Source: Moraxellaceae bacterium | GTDB taxonomy: Bacteria; Pseudomonadota; Gammaproteobacteria; Pseudomonadales; Moraxellaceae | Assembly: GCA_030646295.1 (NCBI GenBank) | Contig: JAUSND010000006.1 | Location: 1 to 32,000, forward strand | Direction: 5' to 3' | Length of the DNA stretch: 32,000 bases | In this document: one piece after another, positions 1 to 18,899 of the stretch | How positions within the stretch are numbered: position 1 is the stretch's first letter | Layout: each line of letters opens with the position of its first letter | Position numbers and translations under genes: made by a program | Notes under the pieces: model-generated | Seen by the model: only the letters and a program-made list of their open reading frames with translations | What the model was told of the DNA's origin: nothing | Databases searched by the model: none

Positions 1-4
1 AACG

Positions 5-228
5 TTAGGGTTTCCGTTGGGCTTACTGGTTTTTAAGTGTTTCAAGCAAGGGAATTGCATCAGCTTGTGGCTTCGGTCACTGCCTTCACGCTTCGATTTA
101 TGTTGTGATTCCCTTTGCCTTAATTAAGGTTGCTCCTGGCCGGTGATACCGGTCTCCGTAGTAACCGGGTGCCTTCGCTAAATGCCAGTGGCACCTTTGG
201 CGGGGCGGTAGCGTGCCAAACGCCACCA
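5..228 (+). ncRNA. ORF-less cassette, candidate structured RNA element (copy A, short subtype)
   Basis: There is no credible ORF between core site 4-10 and attC 229-303. The element is homologous to copy D (3216-3417). Shared stems are GGGAATTGCA 50-59 / TGTGATTCCC 104-113, CGGT 141-144 / ACCG 164-167, GGTGCC 168-173 / GGCACC 190-195, and GGCAC 190-194 / GTGCC 213-217. Strand is assumed from cassette orientation. Confidence 0.5.
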
Positions 229-303
229 CCCTAACAATTCGCTCAAGAGGGACCCGGTGTCAGGCTGCGCCTGCCCCCGGGCCCCTTAGCTCAAACGTTA
301 GAT
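229..303 (+). other. attC recombination site
   Basis: The inverse core CCCTAAC (229-235) is complementary to GTTAGGG at 4-10. The core is GTTAGAT at 297-303. The central part is an imperfect palindrome, gacccggtgtcaggctgcgcctgcccccggg. Confidence 0.85.
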
Positions 304-311
304 GCCACACC

Positions 312-872
312 ATGAAAAATTCATTGCTCTTTTATAGCCTGATAGGACTCTTTTCTTTACCTTCAGTTTCCTCATCAGAGCAGGTTAATCCTGCATCGGA
401 AGTGCAACGAGGATTACTTCCCATATCAGTTGGAATGAAAGATTTCCTTAAATCTTGTGATTGGCCGAAGGTGACGAAGTGCCAAGGAAAGCACCACATT
501 AAGAAAGCCACCCATGTCATAAAGCGAACTGATGACATTGATTCCATTGTCGTTTTTGAGCTGGAATTTAAGGGAATGTCATTTCAATATAGGTCGCCAT
601 CCAAGCAGCCAAAGCAAATCGAAATTACAGGAATTTTGGTTACTTCAAGTGATTGGCAGTTACCCTATGGGTTACGCGTCGGTGACAAAGGTACAAAAAT
701 AATATCTGCTATCGGCCCTCCAGCAGAAATGGCCTATAAAACTTCCGCAAAAAATAGGTCAGATATCTTCTACACGTACCATGATAATGTCGTGGGCGAT
801 CTTTCTAACTTGGTTATGGATATTGCAGGTGGGCATATTGTTAAAGTCGAATGGCTACCGTACAGCGACTGA
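312..872 (+). CDS. Hypothetical secreted protein (cassette ORF)
   Basis: The ATG at 312 is in frame with track ORF 213..872; the upstream part of that ORF lies inside attC. The N-terminus MKNSLLFYSLIGLFSLPSVSS looks like a signal peptide. I recognise no family. Confidence 0.7.
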   Translation: MKNSLLFYSLIGLFSLPSVSSSEQVNPASEVQRGLLPISVGMKDFLKSCDWPKVTKCQGKHHIKKATHVIKRTDDIDSIVVFELEFKGMSFQYRSPSKQPKQIEITGILVTSSDWQLPYGLRVGDKGTKIISAIGPPAEMAYKTSAKNRSDIFYTYHDNVVGDLSNLVMDIAGGHIVKVEWLPYSD

Positions 873-906
873 GCATAATCCGGCATCTAACAAGCGACTG
901 TGATCG

Positions 907-2072
<1,166 letters not shown>

Positions 2073-2142
2073 ACAACTCATTCGAGTGGGACACAGTGTC
2101 AGGCTTCGCCTGCCCCTGTGCCCCTCAATTCCAACGTTAGCG
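2073..2142 (+). other. attC recombination site, 3' portion (the 5' 9 nt are at 885-893, split by the IS)
   Basis: The sequence acaactcattcgagtgggacacagtgtcaggcttcgcctgcccctgtgcccctcaattccaacGTTAGCG aligns with the other attC sites. The core is GTTAGCG at 2136-2142. Confidence 0.85.
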
Positions 2143-2437
2143 CTTCCGTTGGGTTTCTTTGAATTTGCATTGCCCTTCCCTGCGAAATTCACCCGCTGTG
2201 GCTTCGGCAAAGCCACAAGGTTTCAAGTCCCTGTACGCTGTTCTTTCACTGTCGTTAACGGTGAAAAATTGAAGGCCGTAATTCTTTGCCTTCAGCATGA
2301 GCGTACAGGGGTTTAGTGATTACGTAGCTTCGGGCAGGCCGGCACAAGCCAGTGAATCCGTGCTCTGCACAAGCCGTTTGCCTTCGTTTATAGTCGGGGG
2401 CACCTTTGGAAGAGCGGTTTCGTGCCTGGCACCACTG
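2137..2437 (+). ncRNA. ORF-less cassette, candidate structured RNA element (copy B, long subtype)
   Basis: There is no ORF confined to the cassette. Stems are GAATTT 2161-2166 / AAATTC 2185-2190, ATTCAC 2187-2192 / GTGAAT 2352-2357, TGTGGC 2197-2202 / GCCACA 2212-2217, CCCTGTACGCT 2229-2239 / AGCGTACAGGG 2300-2310, TTTCAC 2244-2249 / GTGAAA 2261-2266, TGAAGGC 2270-2276 / GCCTTCA 2288-2294, and GGCAC 2399-2403 / GTGCC 2422-2426. Confidence 0.55.
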
Positions 2438-2514
2438 CTCTAACAATTCGTTCCAGGGCCGACCCTGTGTCAGGCTGCGCCTGCCACAGGTCGCCCTGAA
2501 CTCCAACGTTAGCG
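2438..2514 (+). other. attC recombination site
   Basis: Inverse core CTCTAAC at 2438-2444 and core GTTAGCG at 2508-2514. The site is nearly identical to attC 2809-2885. Confidence 0.85.
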
Positions 2515-2808
2515 CTTCCGTTGGGTTTATTTGAATTTGCATCGCCCTGCCCTGCGCAATTCACCCGCAATGGCTTCGGTAATGCAGCAAGGCATCAAGT
2601 CCTGTGCGCTGTTCTTTCGCGGTCGCTGTTAGCTAAGCGTCAAAGGCTGTCGCTTCTTTGCTTTCAGCCGGAGCGCACAGGGGCTGGTGATTACGCAGCT
2701 TCGGCCAGGCCGGCACAAGCCAGTGAATCCGTGCTCTGCACAAGCCGTTTGCCTTCGTGTATAGTCGGGGGCACCTTTGGAAGAGCGGTTTCGTGCCAAA
2801 CACCACTG
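2509..2808 (+). ncRNA. ORF-less cassette, candidate structured RNA element (copy C, long subtype)
   Basis: This is a tandem paralogue of copy B. Stems are ATTCAC 2559-2564 / GTGAAT 2723-2728, CCTGTGCGCT 2601-2610 / AGCGCACAGG 2672-2681 (compensatory relative to B), CGCT 2624-2627 / AGCG 2636-2639, and GGCAC 2770-2774 / GTGCC 2793-2797. Confidence 0.55.
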
Positions 2809-2885
2809 CTCTAACAATTCGTTCCAGGGCCGACCCAGTGTCAGGCTGCGCCTGCCACAGGTCGCCCTGAACTCCAACGTTAGGG
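2809..2885 (+). other. attC recombination site
   Basis: Inverse core CTCTAAC at 2809-2815 and core GTTAGGG at 2879-2885. Confidence 0.85.
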
Positions 2886-2892
2886 CTTTACA

Positions 2893-3141
2893 GTGCAAAA
2901 CATCTTGGTCATAAAAAGCTGGTCAGATGATCTAGCATGGGCAGGCAAAAGTAGTTGGCCGCTTAAAGCATTCTGTTATCGTGTATCTCTGTGCACCGAT
3001 CTTAAAGGCACAGAATTGAAGCGTGTTTCACGTGCCATCATGAAAAGAGAACTTCTAGAGTTAAGCCTAAGCAAGCCGGAAAATGCAGAGCCGCTCATCC
3101 ATACTCTTGAGTCATCAGGCGCGAAAGTTACTATTAAGTAG
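2893..3141 (+). CDS. Small hypothetical cassette ORF (uncertain)
   Basis: This is the only ORF in the cassette orientation within cassette 2880-3215. It has a GTG start with no clear RBS; an alternative ATG gives only 33 aa (MKRELLELSLSK...). The cassette could also be non-coding. Confidence 0.3.
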   Translation: MQNILVIKSWSDDLAWAGKSSWPLKAFCYRVSLCTDLKGTELKRVSRAIMKRELLELSLSKPENAEPLIHTLESSGAKVTIK

Positions 3142-3146
3142 CCTCG

Positions 3147-3221
3147 CCCTAACAATTCGCTCAAGAGGGACCCGGTGTCAGGCTCCGCCTGCCTCCGGGC
3201 CCCTTAGCTCAAACGTTAGGG
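3147..3221 (+). other. attC recombination site
   Basis: Inverse core CCCTAAC at 3147-3153 is complementary to GTTAGGG at 2879-2885. Core is GTTAGGG at 3215-3221. Ignoring the last core bases, which belong to the next cassette, the site differs from attC 229-303 at only 2 positions. Confidence 0.85.
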
Positions 3222-3417
3222 CTATCGCTGTCGTACTGGTGGTTGTGTTAATCAAGCAAGGGAATTGCATCGTTTCGTGACTTCGGCAAATGCTGTCACG
3301 CTCCGTTCAAATCTGTGATTCCCCTGCTTCGGTATTTTTTGTTCGGTGATTACGTGCTTCGTAGTTACCGGGTGCCTTCGCTAAATGCCGCTGGCACCTT
3401 TGGCGGGGCGGTAGCGT
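3216..3417 (+). ncRNA. ORF-less cassette, candidate structured RNA element (copy D, short subtype)
   Basis: Stems are GGGAATTGCA 3260-3269 / TGTGATTCCC 3314-3323, CGTGAC 3276-3281 / GTCACG 3295-3300, CGGTGATTAC 3344-3353 / GTAGTTACCG 3361-3370 (two G-T wobbles), GGTGCC 3371-3376 / GGCACC 3393-3398, and GGCAC 3393-3397 / GTGCC 3416-3420. Confidence 0.5.
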
Positions 3418-3489
3418 GCCAAACGCCACTGGGGTTTTACCCCGCTTTCACGGACACATCTGATAAGCCCCTTAACTCCAACGTTAGGC
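3418..3489 (+). other. attC-like site, atypical sequence
   Basis: It ends in a good core, ctccaacGTTAGGC (3483-3489). The 5' half (GCCAAACgccactggggttttaccccgc...) is unlike the family consensus, and the inverse-core-like GCCAAAC at 3418-3424 overlaps the conserved element. Confidence 0.55.
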
Positions 3490-3506
3490 TCATAAAGGAG
3501 ATGTAA

Positions 3507-3860
3507 GTGAAGTATCTAGTTATTGTTTTGCTATTGGCTGGTGGCTATTGGCTCTACACCGAGAAATACAATAAACAGACGTCGGCCGGCGAGAACCTCG
3601 TAGCCCAGATCCAAGCAGGAAAACCTGTTTCGATTCCGCAGGCAAAAATCAAAGCGGACGAAATAGTTACATTCTTCTGTAATGATTCTGGCCTTCAAGC
3701 CGCAGGGAACTCCAGCACGACCGAATGCTTAGGCAAGTATTCGGAACGTAAAGAGCGCTGCGAGCAAAGAATTTTTCCAGAAGCAGCCACCCCCATTAAG
3801 ACTGAAGAAGAGCTTAAGGCATATTTTAAGCGCTTCATTCATTGCACTATTGAATCTTAA
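3507..3860 (+). CDS. Hypothetical membrane-anchored or secreted protein (cassette ORF)
   Basis: GTG start 8 nt after AAGGAG. The N-terminus is hydrophobic (MKYLVIVLLLAGGYWLY). The ORF fills cassette 3484-3945. Confidence 0.7.
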   Translation: MKYLVIVLLLAGGYWLYTEKYNKQTSAGENLVAQIQAGKPVSIPQAKIKADEIVTFFCNDSGLQAAGNSSTTECLGKYSERKERCEQRIFPEAATPIKTEEELKAYFKRFIHCTIES

Positions 3861-4378: not shown

Positions 4379-4411
4379 ATCTAACAACTTGTTCCAGGGC
4401 CAACGTTATGG
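4379..4411 (+). other. attC remnant with internal deletion
   Basis: The sequence ATCTAACAACTTGTTCCAGGGCC is joined directly to AACGTTATGG. The central palindrome of the family is missing, leaving about 33 bp. Confidence 0.5.
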
Positions 4412-4634: not shown

Positions 4635-4713
4635 CCCTAACAACTCGTTCAAGGCCCGCTCCGCCCGACGTGCCCGGCGCGGCCGGCCACGCCCCTTAAC
4701 TCCAACGCCAGGA
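4635..4713 (+). other. attC site with mutated core (GCCAGGA)
   Basis: Inverse core is CCCTAAC at 4635-4641 and the GC-rich central region is palindromic. The 3' end reads ctccaacGCCAGGA at 4707-4713, so the conserved GTT is lost. Confidence 0.6.
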
Positions 4714-4720
4714 GCCTCAT

Positions 4721-5314
4721 ATGAAACGGATAACAATTCTAATCGTTGGACTTCTTTTCAGCTCGCTAGCGCTTGCGTATGAGCCCAAGGCAGGAGATAT
4801 CGTCTTCCACACATCCTTGTCTCAGCAAAGCATCGCTGTTCAGGCCGCCACCAACTCTCCTTACAGTCACATGGGTATTGTTCTTTATAAAGATTCAAAG
4901 CCATATGTTTTTGAGGCCGTTCAGCCAGTTAAGTACACACCGCTTGATGCATGGCTTAACCGTGGCAAAGGCAAACACTACGTTGTAAAGCGCCTCAAGT
5001 CTCCACTTTCAGCATTAGCAATCACTCGGCTTCAAGAAGATGCAGCGCATTATGTAGGCAAACCCTATGATCTCTCGTTTGAGTGGTCAGATAGCCGTAT
5101 CTATTGCTCAGAGCTCGTTTGGAAACTGTATAAATCAGCTACTGATATTGAACTCACGCCTCTCGCCGAGCTTGGTAGCTTTAATCTCACCAATCCTGCT
5201 GTTAAGGCAACGCTCATAGAGCGCTATGGCAGCCAAGTGCCACTGAATGAGCCCGTTGTCGCTCCGGTGGCCATCTTTGAATCACCGTTGCTTGTTACTG
5301 TGGCCCAGCGGTAA
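4721..5314 (+). CDS. yiiX: YiiX-family permuted papain-like (NlpC/P60 superfamily) protein with signal peptide
   Basis: It is close to E. coli YiiX as I recall it: GDIVFH.S.S.QS.A.Q.AT.S.YSH.G...KPYVFEAV.PVKYTPL..W, GKPYD.SF.WSD.R.YCSELVWK.Y, NP.V.A.L.ERYG...PL.E.VV.P. Confidence 0.8.
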   Translation: MKRITILIVGLLFSSLALAYEPKAGDIVFHTSLSQQSIAVQAATNSPYSHMGIVLYKDSKPYVFEAVQPVKYTPLDAWLNRGKGKHYVVKRLKSPLSALAITRLQEDAAHYVGKPYDLSFEWSDSRIYCSELVWKLYKSATDIELTPLAELGSFNLTNPAVKATLIERYGSQVPLNEPVVAPVAIFESPLLVTVAQR

Positions 5315-6372: not shown

Positions 6373-7104
6373 ATGAATGAATTAGTTGGTATGTATTTTT
6401 CCCCGTGGACTGAGCGAGCCAGATGGGCGCTCGACTACCACAAGGTTCCATACAAATACGTTGAGTACACCACGTTGTTGGGCCAACCGTTGCTGAGGCT
6501 TAGGGCTGGCAAGCCATTTGGAAAAGTCTCCGTTCCGCTGCTGATCACGCCGAATGAAAGAGTTAATGACTCGTTTGAGATTGCGGTTTACTCGGATCAA
6601 ATGTCAGAGCAGGAGCCACTGGTGCCTCCGGCACATTTCGCGGAAATCAAAAACTGGACGGAATCGGCAGAACTTGCCCTTTACTCGGCGCGTCTGCGGG
6701 CAACGCGCAGAATCCAGGCCAGTTCGGAAGCGCTGGCTGACAGGCTGCCAGGATATACGCCAAACCTCTTGCGCAAGGCTTTTGTGCCCATGGCCTATAT
6801 CGCAACGGGATACATACTGCGTAAATATCAACTCGAAGATGATGACGATGAGAAGCTGCTGAAAAACATGGACGAATTCTTTGACAAGGCAAACAATGCC
6901 TTGAGTGGTAGAAGATTTGTCTTCGAGAACCTGAGTTTTGCAGATATTGTCATCGCCACCGCAATGCAAGCGATCACGCCCGTTGAGGACAAGTACATAT
7001 ATTTAGGGCTGCCGAGCCGCAAGTGTATGTGTGAGCCTGCCCTGGAGATGAAATATTCGTCATTGATAAAGTGGCGAGATTCCGTATATGAGCAGTACAG
7101 GTAG
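6373..7104 (+). CDS. Glutathione S-transferase-like protein (cassette ORF)
   Basis: The ATG at 6373 lies after the attC remnant. The N-terminus is thioredoxin-like (YFSPWTERARWAL...VPLL) and the C-terminal helical domain contains SFADIVIA. Confidence 0.65.
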   Translation: MNELVGMYFSPWTERARWALDYHKVPYKYVEYTTLLGQPLLRLRAGKPFGKVSVPLLITPNERVNDSFEIAVYSDQMSEQEPLVPPAHFAEIKNWTESAELALYSARLRATRRIQASSEALADRLPGYTPNLLRKAFVPMAYIATGYILRKYQLEDDDDEKLLKNMDEFFDKANNALSGRRFVFENLSFADIVIATAMQAITPVEDKYIYLGLPSRKCMCEPALEMKYSSLIKWRDSVYEQYR

Positions 7105-7201: not shown

Positions 7202-7219
7202 GTCATTAAAGGAGGCCCT

Positions 7220-7630
7220 GTGAACGTCAGTCTATTTCGCCATGCATTCATGCTCATTCTGCTCTCGCTCATTGGCGGATTATTCATCCATGCCATGGCC
7301 ATTCCAAGGCTTGGGCTTTCCGCGCATACCATCGGCGTTATCAGCGGCACCCTACTCATCGCGATTGGAGTCATCTGGCAAAACTTCCACCTCTCTGATG
7401 CACAGGGTGCATGGCTCAAGTGGTCGTGGCTTTATTCAAGCTACATCAATTGGCTTGCCTGCATCGTTGGCGCGTTTCTTGGCGCAGGAAAAATGACACC
7501 TCTTGCAGCCGCAGGTCATATCGGAAACGACGCCATAGAAATACTGGCTTCAGTTCTTTTTATAAGTGTCGCCATCTCCTCTTTCATCGCGGTGGGTCTG
7601 TCACTCTGGGGGTTGCGTCGCGTTTCGTAG
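7220..7630 (+). CDS. Four-TM small membrane protein, possibly hydroxylaminobenzene-mutase-like family
   Basis: GTG start 7 nt after AAAGGAGG. The ORF is hydrophobic throughout. The IPRLGLSAHTIGVISGT motif resembles small proteins often annotated HabA/B-like; this is recollection only. Confidence 0.65.
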   Translation: MNVSLFRHAFMLILLSLIGGLFIHAMAIPRLGLSAHTIGVISGTLLIAIGVIWQNFHLSDAQGAWLKWSWLYSSYINWLACIVGAFLGAGKMTPLAAAGHIGNDAIEILASVLFISVAISSFIAVGLSLWGLRRVS

Positions 7631-8539: not shown

Positions 8540-8611
8540 CTCAAACTCGTTCAGGTGTAACCCGGAGTCAGGCTTCACCTGCCCCCGCAGCCCTCAATTC
8601 CAATGGTCGCG
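8540..8611 (+). other. attC site with mutated core (GGTCGCG)
   Basis: The sequence CTCAAACtcgttcaggtgtaacccggagtcaggcttcacctgcccccgcagccctcaattccaatGGTCGCG has the family central region, but both cores are degenerate. Confidence 0.55.
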
Positions 8612-8951
8612 CCCAGCACTTAAGAGCGCCGTTCCCTCTTTCCCTTTCTCTTGTTGCTGTCCATTCGCTATCACCGCACTTTTAGAAATCACAGAATAAA
8701 ACACCCGGCACGGTTGATGTGCAAAGCCAGCCCGTTGCCGGTGCACTGGTTAAATCCCGTAAGGAATGCCCCCAATGACTCGCTTACCTTATTGGTAATC
8801 GCCCCATCAGCTATAATCTCTTCATTCGCCATGAGAAAAATGAACTCAAGGCAGAAAGTGAGGCGTGACTGGCACCTCCAGAGACCATGCCTCCCTTGTA
8901 TATTGGCTATATGGGCAGAACCGGTTTACTACAAACCGTTCTGAGCGGTAG

Positions 8952-9029
8952 CTCTGACAACTCGTTTCAGGACTTATCCATGCTTGGGTTTTAACCAGGC
9001 ATGGATAAGCCCTGAACTACGGCGTCATG
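8952..9029 (+). other. Last attC-like site of the array (degenerate core GTCATGA)
   Basis: CTCTGACaactcgtttcagg is followed by a long palindrome, GGACTTATCCATGC...GCATGGATAAGCCC, and then cctgaactacggcGTCATGA. Confidence 0.55.
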
Positions 9030-9045
9030 AAACAAGGAGCGAGCC

Positions 9046-15566: not shown

Positions 15567-18217
15567 CCATTGACGGCAATGTGCACGAGTTTCCGGAAGA
15601 CACCTTGCTGCTGCGTGCCCTGCATGACACCGGCCACGACGTTCCGCACCTGTGTCACGACGATCGCCTGCAGCCTCACGGCGCCTGTCGTCTGTGCATG
15701 GTGGAGGTCGACGGTTGTTCGCGTCCGGTGGCCAGTTGTTCTGCACATGTCACCGACGGCATGGTGATTCATACCGACACAACAGCACTCCGCAATCTGC
15801 GCAAGACCAACCTGTCCCTGCTGGCGGCACACTACCCTGCCAGTGCCGTTGCCCGGGAACCTGACCATGCGTTTCATAAGTTGCTTGATGCCAACGATAT
15901 CCGTGTCGGCGACCTTGAACGCCCCATCGTATTTTCTGACGACAGCCATCCCTATATCGGCATCGACATGGACCGATGCATTCACTGTGACCGCTGCGTG
16001 CGCATCTGTGATGAAGTACAGGGGCAGTTTGTCTGGCAAACCTGGGGGCGCGGCGAACAGACGCACATTGCCCCCAATGACGGCAACTCGCTACTGGACA
16101 GCGGATGTGTCGCGTGCGGTGCCTGCATCGACACCTGTCCGAGCGGCGCACTGTTCGACAAGCGCGCCCGTCCGGCAGAAAAATGGACGCGCTCAACCTG
16201 CGTGTATTGCGGCGTCGGTTGCCAGCTTGAGGTTGGCAGCACGGATGATCGCGTTGTCGCCATCCGTCCCGTGCAGGACAGCCCGGTTAATCGCGGCCAC
16301 TTGTGCGTAAAAGGCCGCTACGCCTTCGAGTTCAATCATGCGCCCGACCGCATGACCTCGCCAATGCTGCGTGAGGGCGATGCATGGCGTACAGCAAGCT
16401 GGGACGAGGCACTGGATCACATTGCCGCACGATTGAATACCATCATTGCCCATGACGGCCCCGATGCCATTGGCGTACTGGGCTCTGCGCGCGCCACCAA
16501 CGAAGACAATTATCTGGCACAAAAATTCGCGCGGGTGGTGATCGGCAGCAACAATGTCGATTGCTGTGCCCGCGTGTGCCACACGCCCAGCGCAAAAGCA
16601 CTCAAGACCATGCTGGGCACTGGTGCCGCCACCAATTCGTTCGATGATATCGAACGTGCCAGCGCCTTCCTGATCTGTGGCGCCAACCCGACCGAGAATC
16701 ACCCCATTGTCGGCGCCCGCATCAAACAGGCCGTGCGCAAGGGTGCAAAACTGATCGTGGTGGACCCCCGCCGTATTGAGCTGGCTGATTATGCGGACCT
16801 GTGGCTGCCGGTGCGGCCCGGCCATAACGTCGAACTGTTCAATGCCATGGCCGCCACCATTATCGAAGAGCGGCTGGTTGATACGGCATTTCTCGACGCG
16901 CGCGTGGATGGCCTTGATGACTACCGTGCACTGGTCGCCGGTTACACGCCCGAAAAAGTGGCCGCATCATGTGGTGTTTCTGCCGGAGACATTCGTGCCG
17001 CGGCACGCCTCTACGCCGGCAGCAAACCGGCCATGTGCTTTCATGGCCTTGGCATGACCGAGCACGTGCAGGGCACCGAAGGCGTAATGACACTGATCAA
17101 CCTGGCGCTGCTCACCGGCAATCTGGGCAAGCCCGGCAGCGGCATCAATCCCTTGCGTGGGCAGAACAATGTGCAGGGCTCGGCACAAATGGGCTGTGAC
17201 CCCGGCTCGCTGACCGGCTCGCAGGACATCCGCAACGCCAGCGTGCGGCAGCGCTTTGAAACACAGTGGGGAGCACCCCTGCCGGAAAATCCCGGCCTTG
17301 ACCTGCTGGCGATGATGGACGCTGCAGCCGACGGAAAACTCAAGGCGCTGTGGGCCTTTGGTTATGACATTTCCCTCACGCTGGCAAACAAGAGCGCGAC
17401 CGATGCGGCGCTGCAAAAAGTCGACATGGTCATTGTGCAGGATCTTTTCCTTAACGAAACGGCGCGCCTGCACGGCACGGTTTTCCTGCCTGCCGCCAGC
17501 GTGTTCGAGCGTGATGGCACTTTCATGAATTCGGACCGGCGCGTACAGCGCGTGCGTGCTGCCGTGCCGCCACCAGGCGAGGCCAAACCGGACTGGTGGA
17601 TCATCCAGCAACTGGCAGCACGCATGGGGCATCCGCAAGGATTTTCATTCAACAATGCCGAAGGCATCTGGAACGAGATTCGTGCTGTTTGGCCCGCAGG
17701 GGCCGGCCTCGGCTATGCGCGACTGGAACACGAAAGCATCAACTGGCCCTGCCCGGATGAAAACCATCCCGGCACCCCGGTCCTGCATCGTGAAAAATTT
17801 GCACAAGGCGAGCGCGCTGCACTGGCCTGCATTCCGTTTGTGGCGACACACGAGCAATGTGATGCCGACCATCCCTTGCTGCTGACCACCGGCCGCACGC
17901 TGTATCACTTCAATGCCGGCACCATGACGTACCGCACACCCAACCGCGAACTGCGCCCGGGCGACACGCTGGACATGTCACCGGTTGATGCGCACAAGCA
18001 CGGGATAAGCGATGGCGAGCAGGTAAGGATTTGCAGCCGTTATGGTGAGGCCGTCTTGCCGGTACGGATCAGCGACCGCATCAAGCCGGGCGAACTGTTC
18101 TGCACGTTCCACCTGCCGGAGTTGCTGGTCAACCGGCTGACGTCGAACGAGCGTGATCGGCTGGTGCATGCACCCGAATACAAGGTGACATCGGTGCGGG
18201 TTGAACGCCTGACCTGA
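15554..18217 (+). CDS. Formate dehydrogenase alpha subunit, molybdopterin, Cys-type (FdsA/FdhF-like)
   Basis: The N-terminus carries 2Fe-2S and 4Fe-4S cysteine clusters (CRLCMVEV, CIHCDRCVRIC, CVACGACIDTCP, CVYCGVGC). The molybdopterin oxidoreductase core has VDCCARVCH, so the active-site residue is Cys and there is no in-frame TGA. Confidence 0.9.
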   Translation: MLRITIDGNVHEFPEDTLLLRALHDTGHDVPHLCHDDRLQPHGACRLCMVEVDGCSRPVASCSAHVTDGMVIHTDTTALRNLRKTNLSLLAAHYPASAVAREPDHAFHKLLDANDIRVGDLERPIVFSDDSHPYIGIDMDRCIHCDRCVRICDEVQGQFVWQTWGRGEQTHIAPNDGNSLLDSGCVACGACIDTCPSGALFDKRARPAEKWTRSTCVYCGVGCQLEVGSTDDRVVAIRPVQDSPVNRGHLCVKGRYAFEFNHAPDRMTSPMLREGDAWRTASWDEALDHIAARLNTIIAHDGPDAIGVLGSARATNEDNYLAQKFARVVIGSNNVDCCARVCHTPSAKALKTMLGTGAATNSFDDIERASAFLICGANPTENHPIVGARIKQAVRKGAKLIVVDPRRIELADYADLWLPVRPGHNVELFNAMAATIIEERLVDTAFLDARVDGLDDYRALVAGYTPEKVAASCGVSAGDIRAAARLYAGSKPAMCFHGLGMTEHVQGTEGVMTLINLALLTGNLGKPGSGINPLRGQNNVQGSAQMGCDPGSLTGSQDIRNASVRQRFETQWGAPLPENPGLDLLAMMDAAADGKLKALWAFGYDISLTLANKSATDAALQKVDMVIVQDLFLNETARLHGTVFLPAASVFERDGTFMNSDRRVQRVRAAVPPPGEAKPDWWIIQQLAARMGHPQGFSFNNAEGIWNEIRAVWPAGAGLGYARLEHESINWPCPDENHPGTPVLHREKFAQGERAALACIPFVATHEQCDADHPLLLTTGRTLYHFNAGTMTYRTPNRELRPGDTLDMSPVDAHKHGISDGEQVRICSRYGEAVLPVRISDRIKPGELFCTFHLPELLVNRLTSNERDRLVHAPEYKVTSVRVERLT

Positions 18218-18233: not shown

Positions 18234-18899
18234 TCAGACAGGACGCGTGATGGTCTTGACGCCGGTCGTGGTGGCCACCAGCAGCACATCGGCCGGGCGC
18301 AGGGCGAACAGCCCGTTGGTGACAACACCGGTGATGTTGTTGATGCGCTCTTCCATCTGGCGCGGCACCGGCATGGGCAGGTTCCAGATATCCAGGATGA
18401 CGTTGCCGTTATCCGTCACGACACCTTCGCGATAGACCGGATTGCCGCCCAGCTTCACCATCTCGCGCGCCACGTAGGAACGCGCCATCGGGATGACCTC
18501 GATGGGCAGGGGAAAACGGCCCAGCTGGTCGACCTGCTTGCTGGCATCGCAGATGCAGACAAACTTCCTGGCCACCGCCGCCACGATCTTCTCGCGGGTC
18601 AGTGCCGCACCACCACCCTTGATCATCTCCAGCGCGGCATTCACCTCATCGGCACCATCGACATAGACGCTGATGCTGCCGACGCTGTTGAGCTCCAGTA
18701 CCTCGATGCCGATCTTGCGCAGGCGCGCGGCCGTGGCCTCGGAACTGGCCACGGCACCGGGGATGTCATCCTTCATGCGGGCAAGGCCGTCGATGAAGAA
18801 ATTGGCGGTGGAACCGGTGCCCACACCCAGAATCTCGCCCGGCTCAACATAGGCCAGTGCGGCTTCGGCAACGGCTTTCTTGAGGGCATCCTGGTTCAT
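18234..18899 (-). CDS. rpiA: Ribose-5-phosphate isomerase A
   Basis: Motifs [21 protein letters not shown] and [14 protein letters not shown]. Confidence 0.9.

Follow-up and report, generated by a model that had tools for sequence, protein, structure and literature searches.

Introduction

To our knowledge, gene-less cassettes have long remained a poorly explained part of integron biology, promoter activity being the only property shown for them so far. In other genomic settings, the REP/BIME, ERIC and Correia elements are short, highly repeated, structured and non-coding sequences that lie between co-transcribed genes, sometimes in tandem, and are involved in mRNA stability and processing; they are spread by transposition or by a dedicated transposase, and are mostly simple palindromes. 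Among integron cassettes, most of the gene-less ones tested in Vibrio displayed sense-strand promoter activity (10.1101/2023.11.21.568050), as did two from oral Treponema (PMC6557892). In Xanthomonas, sRNA-Xcc1 is a non-coding RNA located inside an integron cassette and spread horizontally (Chen et al. 2011, as cited in 10.1101/2025.06.18.660453). The DUF1874 motif, a conserved multi-stem structure found repeatedly, in integron-like fashion, in intergenic regions that follow one another, was left undecided between RNA and single-stranded DNA, and was suspected to be the attC recombination site itself (PMC5737381). Here we describe a structured, gene-less element carried by two consecutive integron cassettes, B (positions 2137-2508) and C (2509-2879), in a 32,000-nt stretch of DNA from a Moraxellaceae bacterium (assembly GCA_030646295.1, contig JAUSND010000006.1, positions 1-32,000, forward strand); the whole of this stretch is hereafter called the window.

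Our results show that B and C belong to a selected, non-coding, amplified and mobile family of cassettes in which pairing is conserved, the sense strand has loops of the RNA type, and most members carry a promoter-like site facing outwards. From the sequences we infer that the element is transcribed and that RNA rather than DNA is its functional form, and the function proposed below has the same basis. What distinguishes these cassettes is that a single homologous family combines conserved RNA-type pairing with, in most members, a promoter-like site of its own, and accounts for between a quarter and two fifths of some chromosomal arrays. The family is a defined and testable object: among its 64 sequence variants are natural compensatory mutants, and the promoter-like site is present in some variants and absent from others.

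In comparison with the systems above, the element appears to behave as two things at once, a gene-less promoter cassette and a structured extragenic repeat. As in the superintegrons of Vibrio (10.1101/2023.11.21.568050) and the integrons of oral Treponema (PMC6557892), the cassettes are complete, lack a gene, lie in sense orientation, occur in several copies per array and carry a promoter-like site that would drive the downstream cassette. Unlike those, to which a sequence relationship is not expected, the present ones form one homologous family of 64 unique copies with covarying hairpins and UNCG loops, reach a far higher copy number (up to 22 per 20 kb), and lack a promoter-like site in about a quarter of the unique members. 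Whereas REP/BIME, ERIC and Correia elements spread by transposition, spread is here as attC-bounded cassettes, and the fold is multi-domain and spans 225-325 nt. sRNA-Xcc1 shares its cassette with symE and opposes the cassette promoter, while the present elements are alone in their cassettes and in sense orientation (10.1101/2025.06.18.660453). Finally, in contrast to the suspected identity of the DUF1874 motif with attC, a normal attC follows each element.

Results

Two tandem gene-less cassettes and their relatives in the window

From position 1 to about 9000, the window consists of an integron cassette array on the + strand with a recurring attC type, CTAACAATTCG...GTCAGGCTGCGCCTG...CAACG|TTAG; the remainder is a gammaproteobacterial-looking chromosome segment with formate dehydrogenase, ilvA, gcvPA/PB, ubiH, visC and pepP. 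Integron gene cassettes were recognized by a G|TTRRRY recombination point, a terminal attC with R''/L''...L'/R' inverted repeats, and the same orientation as their neighbours. B, C and a third cassette, A, are cassettes in this sense, with a complete attC (CTAAC...GTCAGGCTGCGCCTG...CAACG|TTAG). An earlier reading made from the letters alone (hereafter the sequence-only reading) had described B and C as tandem, complete and gene-less with near-identical attC sites, and this is what the sequence holds: each opens with TTAG after ...CAACG, and the two attC sites differ by one base over the stretches compared, the first 110 nt for each. Two shorter relatives that it had pointed to are also real, and correspond to cassettes A (5-300, truncated by the window start) and D (3216-3485). 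A 28-nt core, GGCACCTTTGGnnGnGCGGTnnCGTGCC, is present in all four window copies (at 190-217 in A), against 0 expected by chance.

The features of these copies are listed below, where P3 denotes the UUCG hairpin, P5 the long helix of the sequence-only reading, P4 a second UNCG hairpin, and S2 the hairpin abutting attC.

5-235, + strand: short-form member A (nhmmer E 3e-74), truncated by the window start, with its attC at 231-300; CTAAATG variant without the promoter-like site
2137-2444, + strand: long-form element B, cargo of cassette 2137-2508, with no conserved open reading frame
2202-2207, + strand: loop C(UUCG)G of hairpin P3 in B (2573-2578 in C), reading CTTCGG in 43 of 43 aligned long forms, with covarying adjoining pairs
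2229-2310, + strand: helix P5 in B, an exact inverted repeat of 2229-2239 with 2300-2310 that encloses the variable domain 2240-2299
2316-2333, + strand: first conserved GTGATT motif (2316-2321) and loop C(UUCG)G of hairpin P4 (2328-2333) in B, from alignment A8
2366-2394, + strand: sigma-70-like promoter site TGCACA-17-TATAGT in B, directed towards attC (consensus match 9/12)
2411-2441, + strand: hairpin S2 in B, pairing AGAGCGGT (2411-2418) with ACTGCTCT (2434-2441) and abutting the attC R'' box
2440-2508, + strand: attC of cassette B
2509-2815, + strand: long-form element C, cargo of cassette 2509-2879, with P5 at 2601-2610/2672-2681 and S2 at 2782-2789/2805-2812
2737-2765, + strand: sigma-70-like promoter site TGCACA-17-TATAGT in C (consensus match 9/12)
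2811-2879, + strand: attC of cassette C
3216-3437, + strand: short-form member D (nhmmer E 3.5e-69)

The attC of cassette D (3438-3485) is degenerate; its L'/R' half, GCCCCTTAACTCCAACGTTAG, is kept, and its R''/L'' half is replaced by GGGGTTTTACCCCG.

B and C are 87% identical in the 5' leader and 92% identical in the 3' part, against 71% within the P5 domain. The sequence-only reading had set a diverged 5' half against a conserved 3' part; the divergence is concentrated in the P5 domain rather than in the 5' half as a whole. Nor did the two copies simply diverge in place: the P5 domain of C is nearer to that of a metagenomic copy in locus L008 (83% identity, whose flanks are 54-72% identical to C) than to that of B, which indicates mosaic exchange of domains and not duplicates drifting where they stand.

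An amplified and mobile family

An exact-pattern scan of metagenomes with the core yielded seven true members; the same pattern gave no match in 185,579 species genomes or in viral contigs, and BLASTN of copy B found no match in plasmids. A scan for the attC type retrieved Moraxellaceae metagenome-assembled genomes, a Shewanella and others, together with one diverged core in locus L012. The decisive search used a profile of the chance frame that reads from the core through attC, across which gene callers had annotated 12 spurious small 'proteins'; the contigs bearing these are long cassette arrays full of the element. In total, 147 copies were found in 22 loci on unrelated contigs, on one strand within every locus and in the sense orientation of the array. 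Some of the metagenomic arrays hold 12-22 copies per 12-20 kb (23-42% of array length), with tandem runs of up to five copies at a period of about 370 nt. Among the copies, 64 elements are unique, of which 50 are long (300-329 nt) and 14 shorter, the latter including nine true short forms (210-240 nt) as well as medium-length or partial copies. This massive amplification, like the conserved sense-strand promoter-like site described below, goes beyond what the sequence-only reading had noted.

Movement of the cassette as a unit is directly evidenced by an identical short-form cassette that precedes two different cassettes, at 1304-1594 in locus L001 and 1033-1323 in L004. The gene-less cassette is the normal form, since the core adjoins the 3' side of a gene only in L012/L019, a single case among the 147 copies. 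There, at 2340-2408 of L012 (also 1128-1196 of L019), a diverged 3' core stands alone between a 330-aa gene, whose stop codon it follows at a distance of 10 nt, and the immediately adjoining attC; this looks like a coding cassette fused to the tail of an element. The idea of the 75-nt core as a general module of 3' untranslated regions was dropped, given this one occurrence after a gene and the absence of the core from homologues elsewhere; in particular, it is missing from homologues of the 330-aa gene located in lipase clusters. Elsewhere in L012 (1087-1230), the non-coding tail of another coding cassette contains two pieces of the short-form body, CAGTGATTCCC and GGTCTCCGTAG, and no core, and a covariance-model match at 4709-4784 (E 0.086) was taken as chance, as it overlaps apparent coding DNA on the other strand.

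Conserved secondary structure

The structure was tested on the 44 unique long forms of alignment A8, with P3, P5, P4 and S2 taken jointly. Over these four helices, 83.7% of the cells are paired, against 78.3 ± 0.7% in shuffled controls and 33-47% when the helices are slid; 71 cells are changed on both sides, against 41.9 ± 4.1 after shuffling (a value reached in 0 of 500 shuffles) and 6-17 after sliding; and the covariation score is 0.186, against 0.110 ± 0.008 (likewise reached in 0 of 500) and 0.016-0.101, respectively. G-U cells outnumber A-C cells by 87 to 39, which favours the sense strand.

Every helix named in the sequence-only reading lies in the window at the coordinates given there. 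The long helix P5, exact and 100% complementary in both window copies (CCCTGTACGCT at 2229-2239 with AGCGTACAGGG at 2300-2310 in B; CCTGTGCGCT at 2601-2610 with AGCGCACAGG at 2672-2681 in C), measures 9-11 bp and has 94% of its cells paired over the 44 sequences. The proposal that B and C had diverged in a way that preserves pairing is borne out here, as P5 covaries strongly: at pair 118/214 the family displays C-G 19 times, G-C 16 times and A-U nine times, and is never unpaired; the A-U to G-C compensatory change seen between the two copies is real and represents one of three states at that pair. The domain inside P5 is free to vary in its sequence, its length and the hairpins it contains; of the two inner hairpins suggested from B and C, TTTCAC/GTGAAA is present, and the second is not conserved across the family. 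The proposed outer helix ATTCAC/GTGAAT does exist at 2187-2192/2352-2357, but family support for it is absent, as only four compatible pairs (TC[A/G]C/GTGA) are found, with no two-sided change, and either GTGA motif fits equally well. S2 has 95% of its cells paired, with pair 329/355 being C-G in 27 sequences, G-U in eight, A-U in three and other in six. The short forms lack the P5 domain, and in them GCAAGGGAAU pairs with AUUCCCUUGC around P3, a long-range pairing whose equivalent the long forms can also make; their consensus fold has an energy z of -4.3.

In RNA, loops of the UNCG type have a special stability. All 43 of 43 sequences have C(UUCG)G as their P3 loop; at P4 the count is 35 for C(UUCG)G, eight for C(UACG)G and one for C(UCCG)G, with variation only inside the UNCG family and a C-G pair closing the loop throughout. 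CTTCGG is absent in the reverse orientation. This restriction of UNCG loops to the sense strand constitutes the strongest argument for a sense-strand RNA. A different constraint acts at the cassette's own 5' end, which covaries with the extension of the R'' box (pair 5/355: C-G 32, A-U 8); this is a DNA-level attC constraint that overlaps S2.

An H-type pseudoknot with a GGCAC/GTGCC stem crossing S2 was considered and rejected. Invariant in the first nine sequences, it fails in the deeper alignment, where GTGCC is replaced by GTTCC, GCTCC or GCCCC without compensation in most of the new sequences. In the array of locus L023, the -10 hexamer region of three copies (7219-7242, 18147-18170 and 18519-18542) can fold into an 8-bp hairpin, UGCCUUCG[UUUAUAGU]CGGGGGCA, followed by CUUUUUC; modelled thus, it would be terminator-like and would coincide with the promoter of the same element.

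Absence of coding capacity

The element has no coding capacity. Open reading frames (ORFs) of more than 60 aa in B and C mostly begin or finish outside it, largely as the sequence-only reading had held in stating that all such frames run through attC and are broken between the copies; the exception is a TTG-started frame of 97 aa (2521-2814), which lies almost wholly within C, stops in the attC R'' box and is broken in B. Its further expectation, that homologues would share no intact ORF, agrees with the family: over the core, frames range from 9 to 101 stop-free codons among members, with unconserved starts, and in the 44 long forms each of the six frames is interrupted in some member, the longest ORF has a median of 52 aa on a strand that varies, and of 24 gap blocks, 22 have a length not divisible by three. 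When the translations of all six frames were joined into a 2189-aa chimera, it matched none of 5.8 billion proteins at E <= 0.01, and Pfam gave nothing above threshold.

A conserved promoter-like site

On their sense strand, B and C carry TGCACA-17-TATAGT, pointing through attC. Array L023 contains 42 promoter-like sites, against 14.7 ± 3.6 expected, and the excess sits at one homologous position of the element, as GTGACA-16-TATAGT (10/12 matches) or GTGGCA-16-TATAGT. As the copies are homologous, this counts as one conserved promoter-like site and not as many independent ones. Family-wide, the site occurs at its fixed position in 41 of the 64 unique elements, with 9-10 of 12 consensus matches, and its -10 hexamer finishes 49-50 nt before the element end. 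In 21 elements, CTAAATG replaces TATAGT, and 17 of these, among them A, D and nearly all short forms, are without a promoter-like site. Judged by sequence, the site fits the published gene-less cassettes with sense promoters (10.1101/2023.11.21.568050; PMC6557892).

Comparison with known RNA families and mobile elements

The element belongs to no described RNA family, in agreement with the sequence-only reading, which had recognized none in it and had named sRNA-Xcc1 as the candidate to check. The 4227 covariance models of Rfam 15 matched nothing in the whole window at gathering score, nothing in window 1-3600 at E <= 5, and no element copy in L023, L029 or L008. This excludes sRNA-Xcc1, provided that its family is in Rfam release 15, as we assume; the DUF1874 motif, which should presumably also be in Rfam, gave no match to the elements either. 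No tRNA or tmRNA was found.

Group IIC-attC introns have a domain V/VI core, insert antisense inside attC and usually encode a reverse transcriptase. An intron of this type, or a fragment of one, was rejected, as no Rfam intron matched and as the R'' box is unbroken, with the element placed in front of it in sense orientation; next to the element copies, no reverse transcriptase was noticed. The bridge (seek) RNA of IS110/IS1111 elements is encoded in the non-coding end of the insertion sequence, beside the gene for a DEDD transposase. This candidate was discarded too, since neither non-coding end of the neighbouring insertion sequence has similarity to the element above shuffled controls; nearly all element copies lie far from any insertion sequence. 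An antisense sigma-54 promoter (TGGCACG) was rejected on a GG-GC spacing of 9 instead of 10, read from the sequence, and readings as a lipoprotein signal, a k-turn or a T-loop on the absence of their consensus features.

Discussion

We favour, with a probability of about 0.6, the reading that the cargo of B and C is a non-coding element acting as a structured sense-strand RNA of the array. Such an element would be transcribed either by read-through along the array or from the promoter that a copy further upstream carries. Its RNA is predicted to fold into the short hairpins P3 and P4 capped by C(UNCG)G tetraloops, the 9-11 bp helix P5 closing a freely varying domain, and the 6-8 bp hairpin S2 directly before attC, with GCAAGG, GUGAUU (twice) and UGCCUUCG as conserved joining stretches that would stay unpaired. 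Given the distance of the -10 hexamer from the element end, transcripts from the promoter of most long forms would have their start in the S2 region and extend across attC into the following cassette, and the promoter would serve that downstream cassette or the next copy. The DNA copy would move and multiply as an ordinary cassette, which would produce the tandem runs and the very high copy number of some arrays. As to function, our best guess is a cis-acting module that shapes the expression or stability of cassette-array transcripts, a multi-copy trans-acting RNA being the next option. If the RNA is functional, integrons would stockpile and spread structured RNAs besides protein genes, and the expression of arrays might be organised by a repeated module of RNA and promoter.

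Several results weigh against this reading. Three further helices that we had put forward in the 3' half and then dropped, P6 (251-255/261-265), P7 (272-275/288-291) and S0 (293-296/315-318), show no covariation, and their 73.7% of paired cells equals that of shuffles. The antisense consensus folds about as well (z -6.2 for the short forms, -2.4 for the long forms), and copy C folded as a single sequence, with z +0.46, does no better than shuffled sequences. The 3' third is conserved as sequence and overlaps both the promoter-like site and the R'' extension, so part of its conservation is probably at the DNA level. Further, the majority of copies come from one project of the Joint Genome Institute and are paralogues; the counts are consequently not of independent events, and relatedness inflates the shuffle test.

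The rival explanations differ mainly in where they place the function. We think it unlikely that the element is purely a promoter cassette, whose only function would be the DNA-level sigma-70 promoter near the 3' end, activating the downstream cassette, with the conserved hairpins being incidental or regulator-binding DNA. The three versions of the promoter-like site (GTGACA-16-TATAGT, GTGGCA-16-TATAGT and TGCACA-17-TATAGT), found at the same sense-strand position in the 41 elements that include B and C, and the published sense activity of gene-less cassettes of Vibrio (10.1101/2023.11.21.568050) and Treponema (PMC6557892) agree with it. Yet 17 of the 64 unique elements are conserved without the site, a promoter needs about 35 bp and leaves the compensatory pairing and UNCG-only loops of the 200-250 nt upstream unexplained, and five tandem promoters would be redundant. 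Selfish 'empty' cassettes, in which single-stranded-DNA hairpins near attC would improve excision or capture by the integrase, would account for the extreme amplification and tandem runs, for the overlap of the 3' strand of S2 with the extended R'' box, for the covariation of the 5' end with the R'' extension, and for the ability of both strands to fold. This is a rather improbable alternative, however, given that the UNCG-only loops and the sense-strand G-U excess are RNA signatures, that attC recombines its bottom strand, where the loops read CCGAAG, and that P3, P4 and P5 sit 100-250 nt from attC.

The remaining alternatives vary the transcription unit or deny the RNA altogether. A speculative extension, to which we give a low probability similar to that of the pure promoter, holds that the cassettes carry a new class of large structured RNA gene of integron arrays, with a transcription unit that spans the cassette junction in circularly permuted order. 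Promoter and S2 would then lie at the 3' end and the folded body at the 5' end, and the full RNA (S2, attC hairpin, P3, P5 domain and P4) would be made only from tandem copies or from an excised circular cassette; RNA production would thereby be linked to cassette mobility, or the RNA would take part in the propagation of the element itself. Far less probable is a micro-ORF of about 21 codons (NTG CCT TCG ... TGC ...) that would have the TAA of the attC R'' box as its stop. Its start column is GTG, ATG or TTG in the first nine members, and five of eight substitutions in nine core codons are synonymous at the third position in an alignment read by eye; nonetheless, it has no Shine-Dalgarno sequence, the commonest subfamily has a 1-nt deletion and L008 a 1-nt insertion in the frame, D has lost the stop, no frame is open in all members, and no protein or Pfam match was obtained, which brings this reading already close to refuted. 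Equally remote is decaying junk, that is, functionless hitch-hikers left from former genes or fused attC sites: the degenerate attC of D and the existence of partial copies would suit it, but the compensatory changes, the loops and motifs invariant in 64 unique copies, and the conservation between unrelated samples indicate purifying selection. The original interpretation, of selection on structure rather than on coding, is upheld by the deeper data set in the lack of a conserved ORF, the lack of an Rfam match and the strong covariation of P5.

Further observations on the arrays

In locus L008, the array begins right after modA and mop-like genes (6500-6600), with no integrase in view, and a perfect inverted repeat, TATACGACA-TCGAA-TGTCGTATA, instead of a typical attC stands before its first GTTAGC. 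In three assemblies of the European Nucleotide Archive (L032-L034), the same short-form cassette lies directly upstream of a cassette for an 816-aa protein of SIR2 and STAND NTPase type, apparently a defence gene.

The window itself carries an IS110-family element at 880-2060, with its transposase gene at 907-1887 on the minus strand (NCBIfam 'IS110 family RNA-guided transposase', E 9e-63); it seems to have entered the preceding cassette's attC in the fashion of IS1111-attC elements, and similar DEDD transposases are found in arrays L029 and L030. Between two small cassettes, a very short attC-like site, CTAACAACTTGTTCCAGGGCCAACGTTATGG (4381-4410), may be a truncated recombination site. Towards the end of the array, the segment at 8606-9030, located between two attC-like sites, contains only a weak TTG-started frame of 97 aa (8651-8944), and may be another gene-less cassette, unrelated to the element family.

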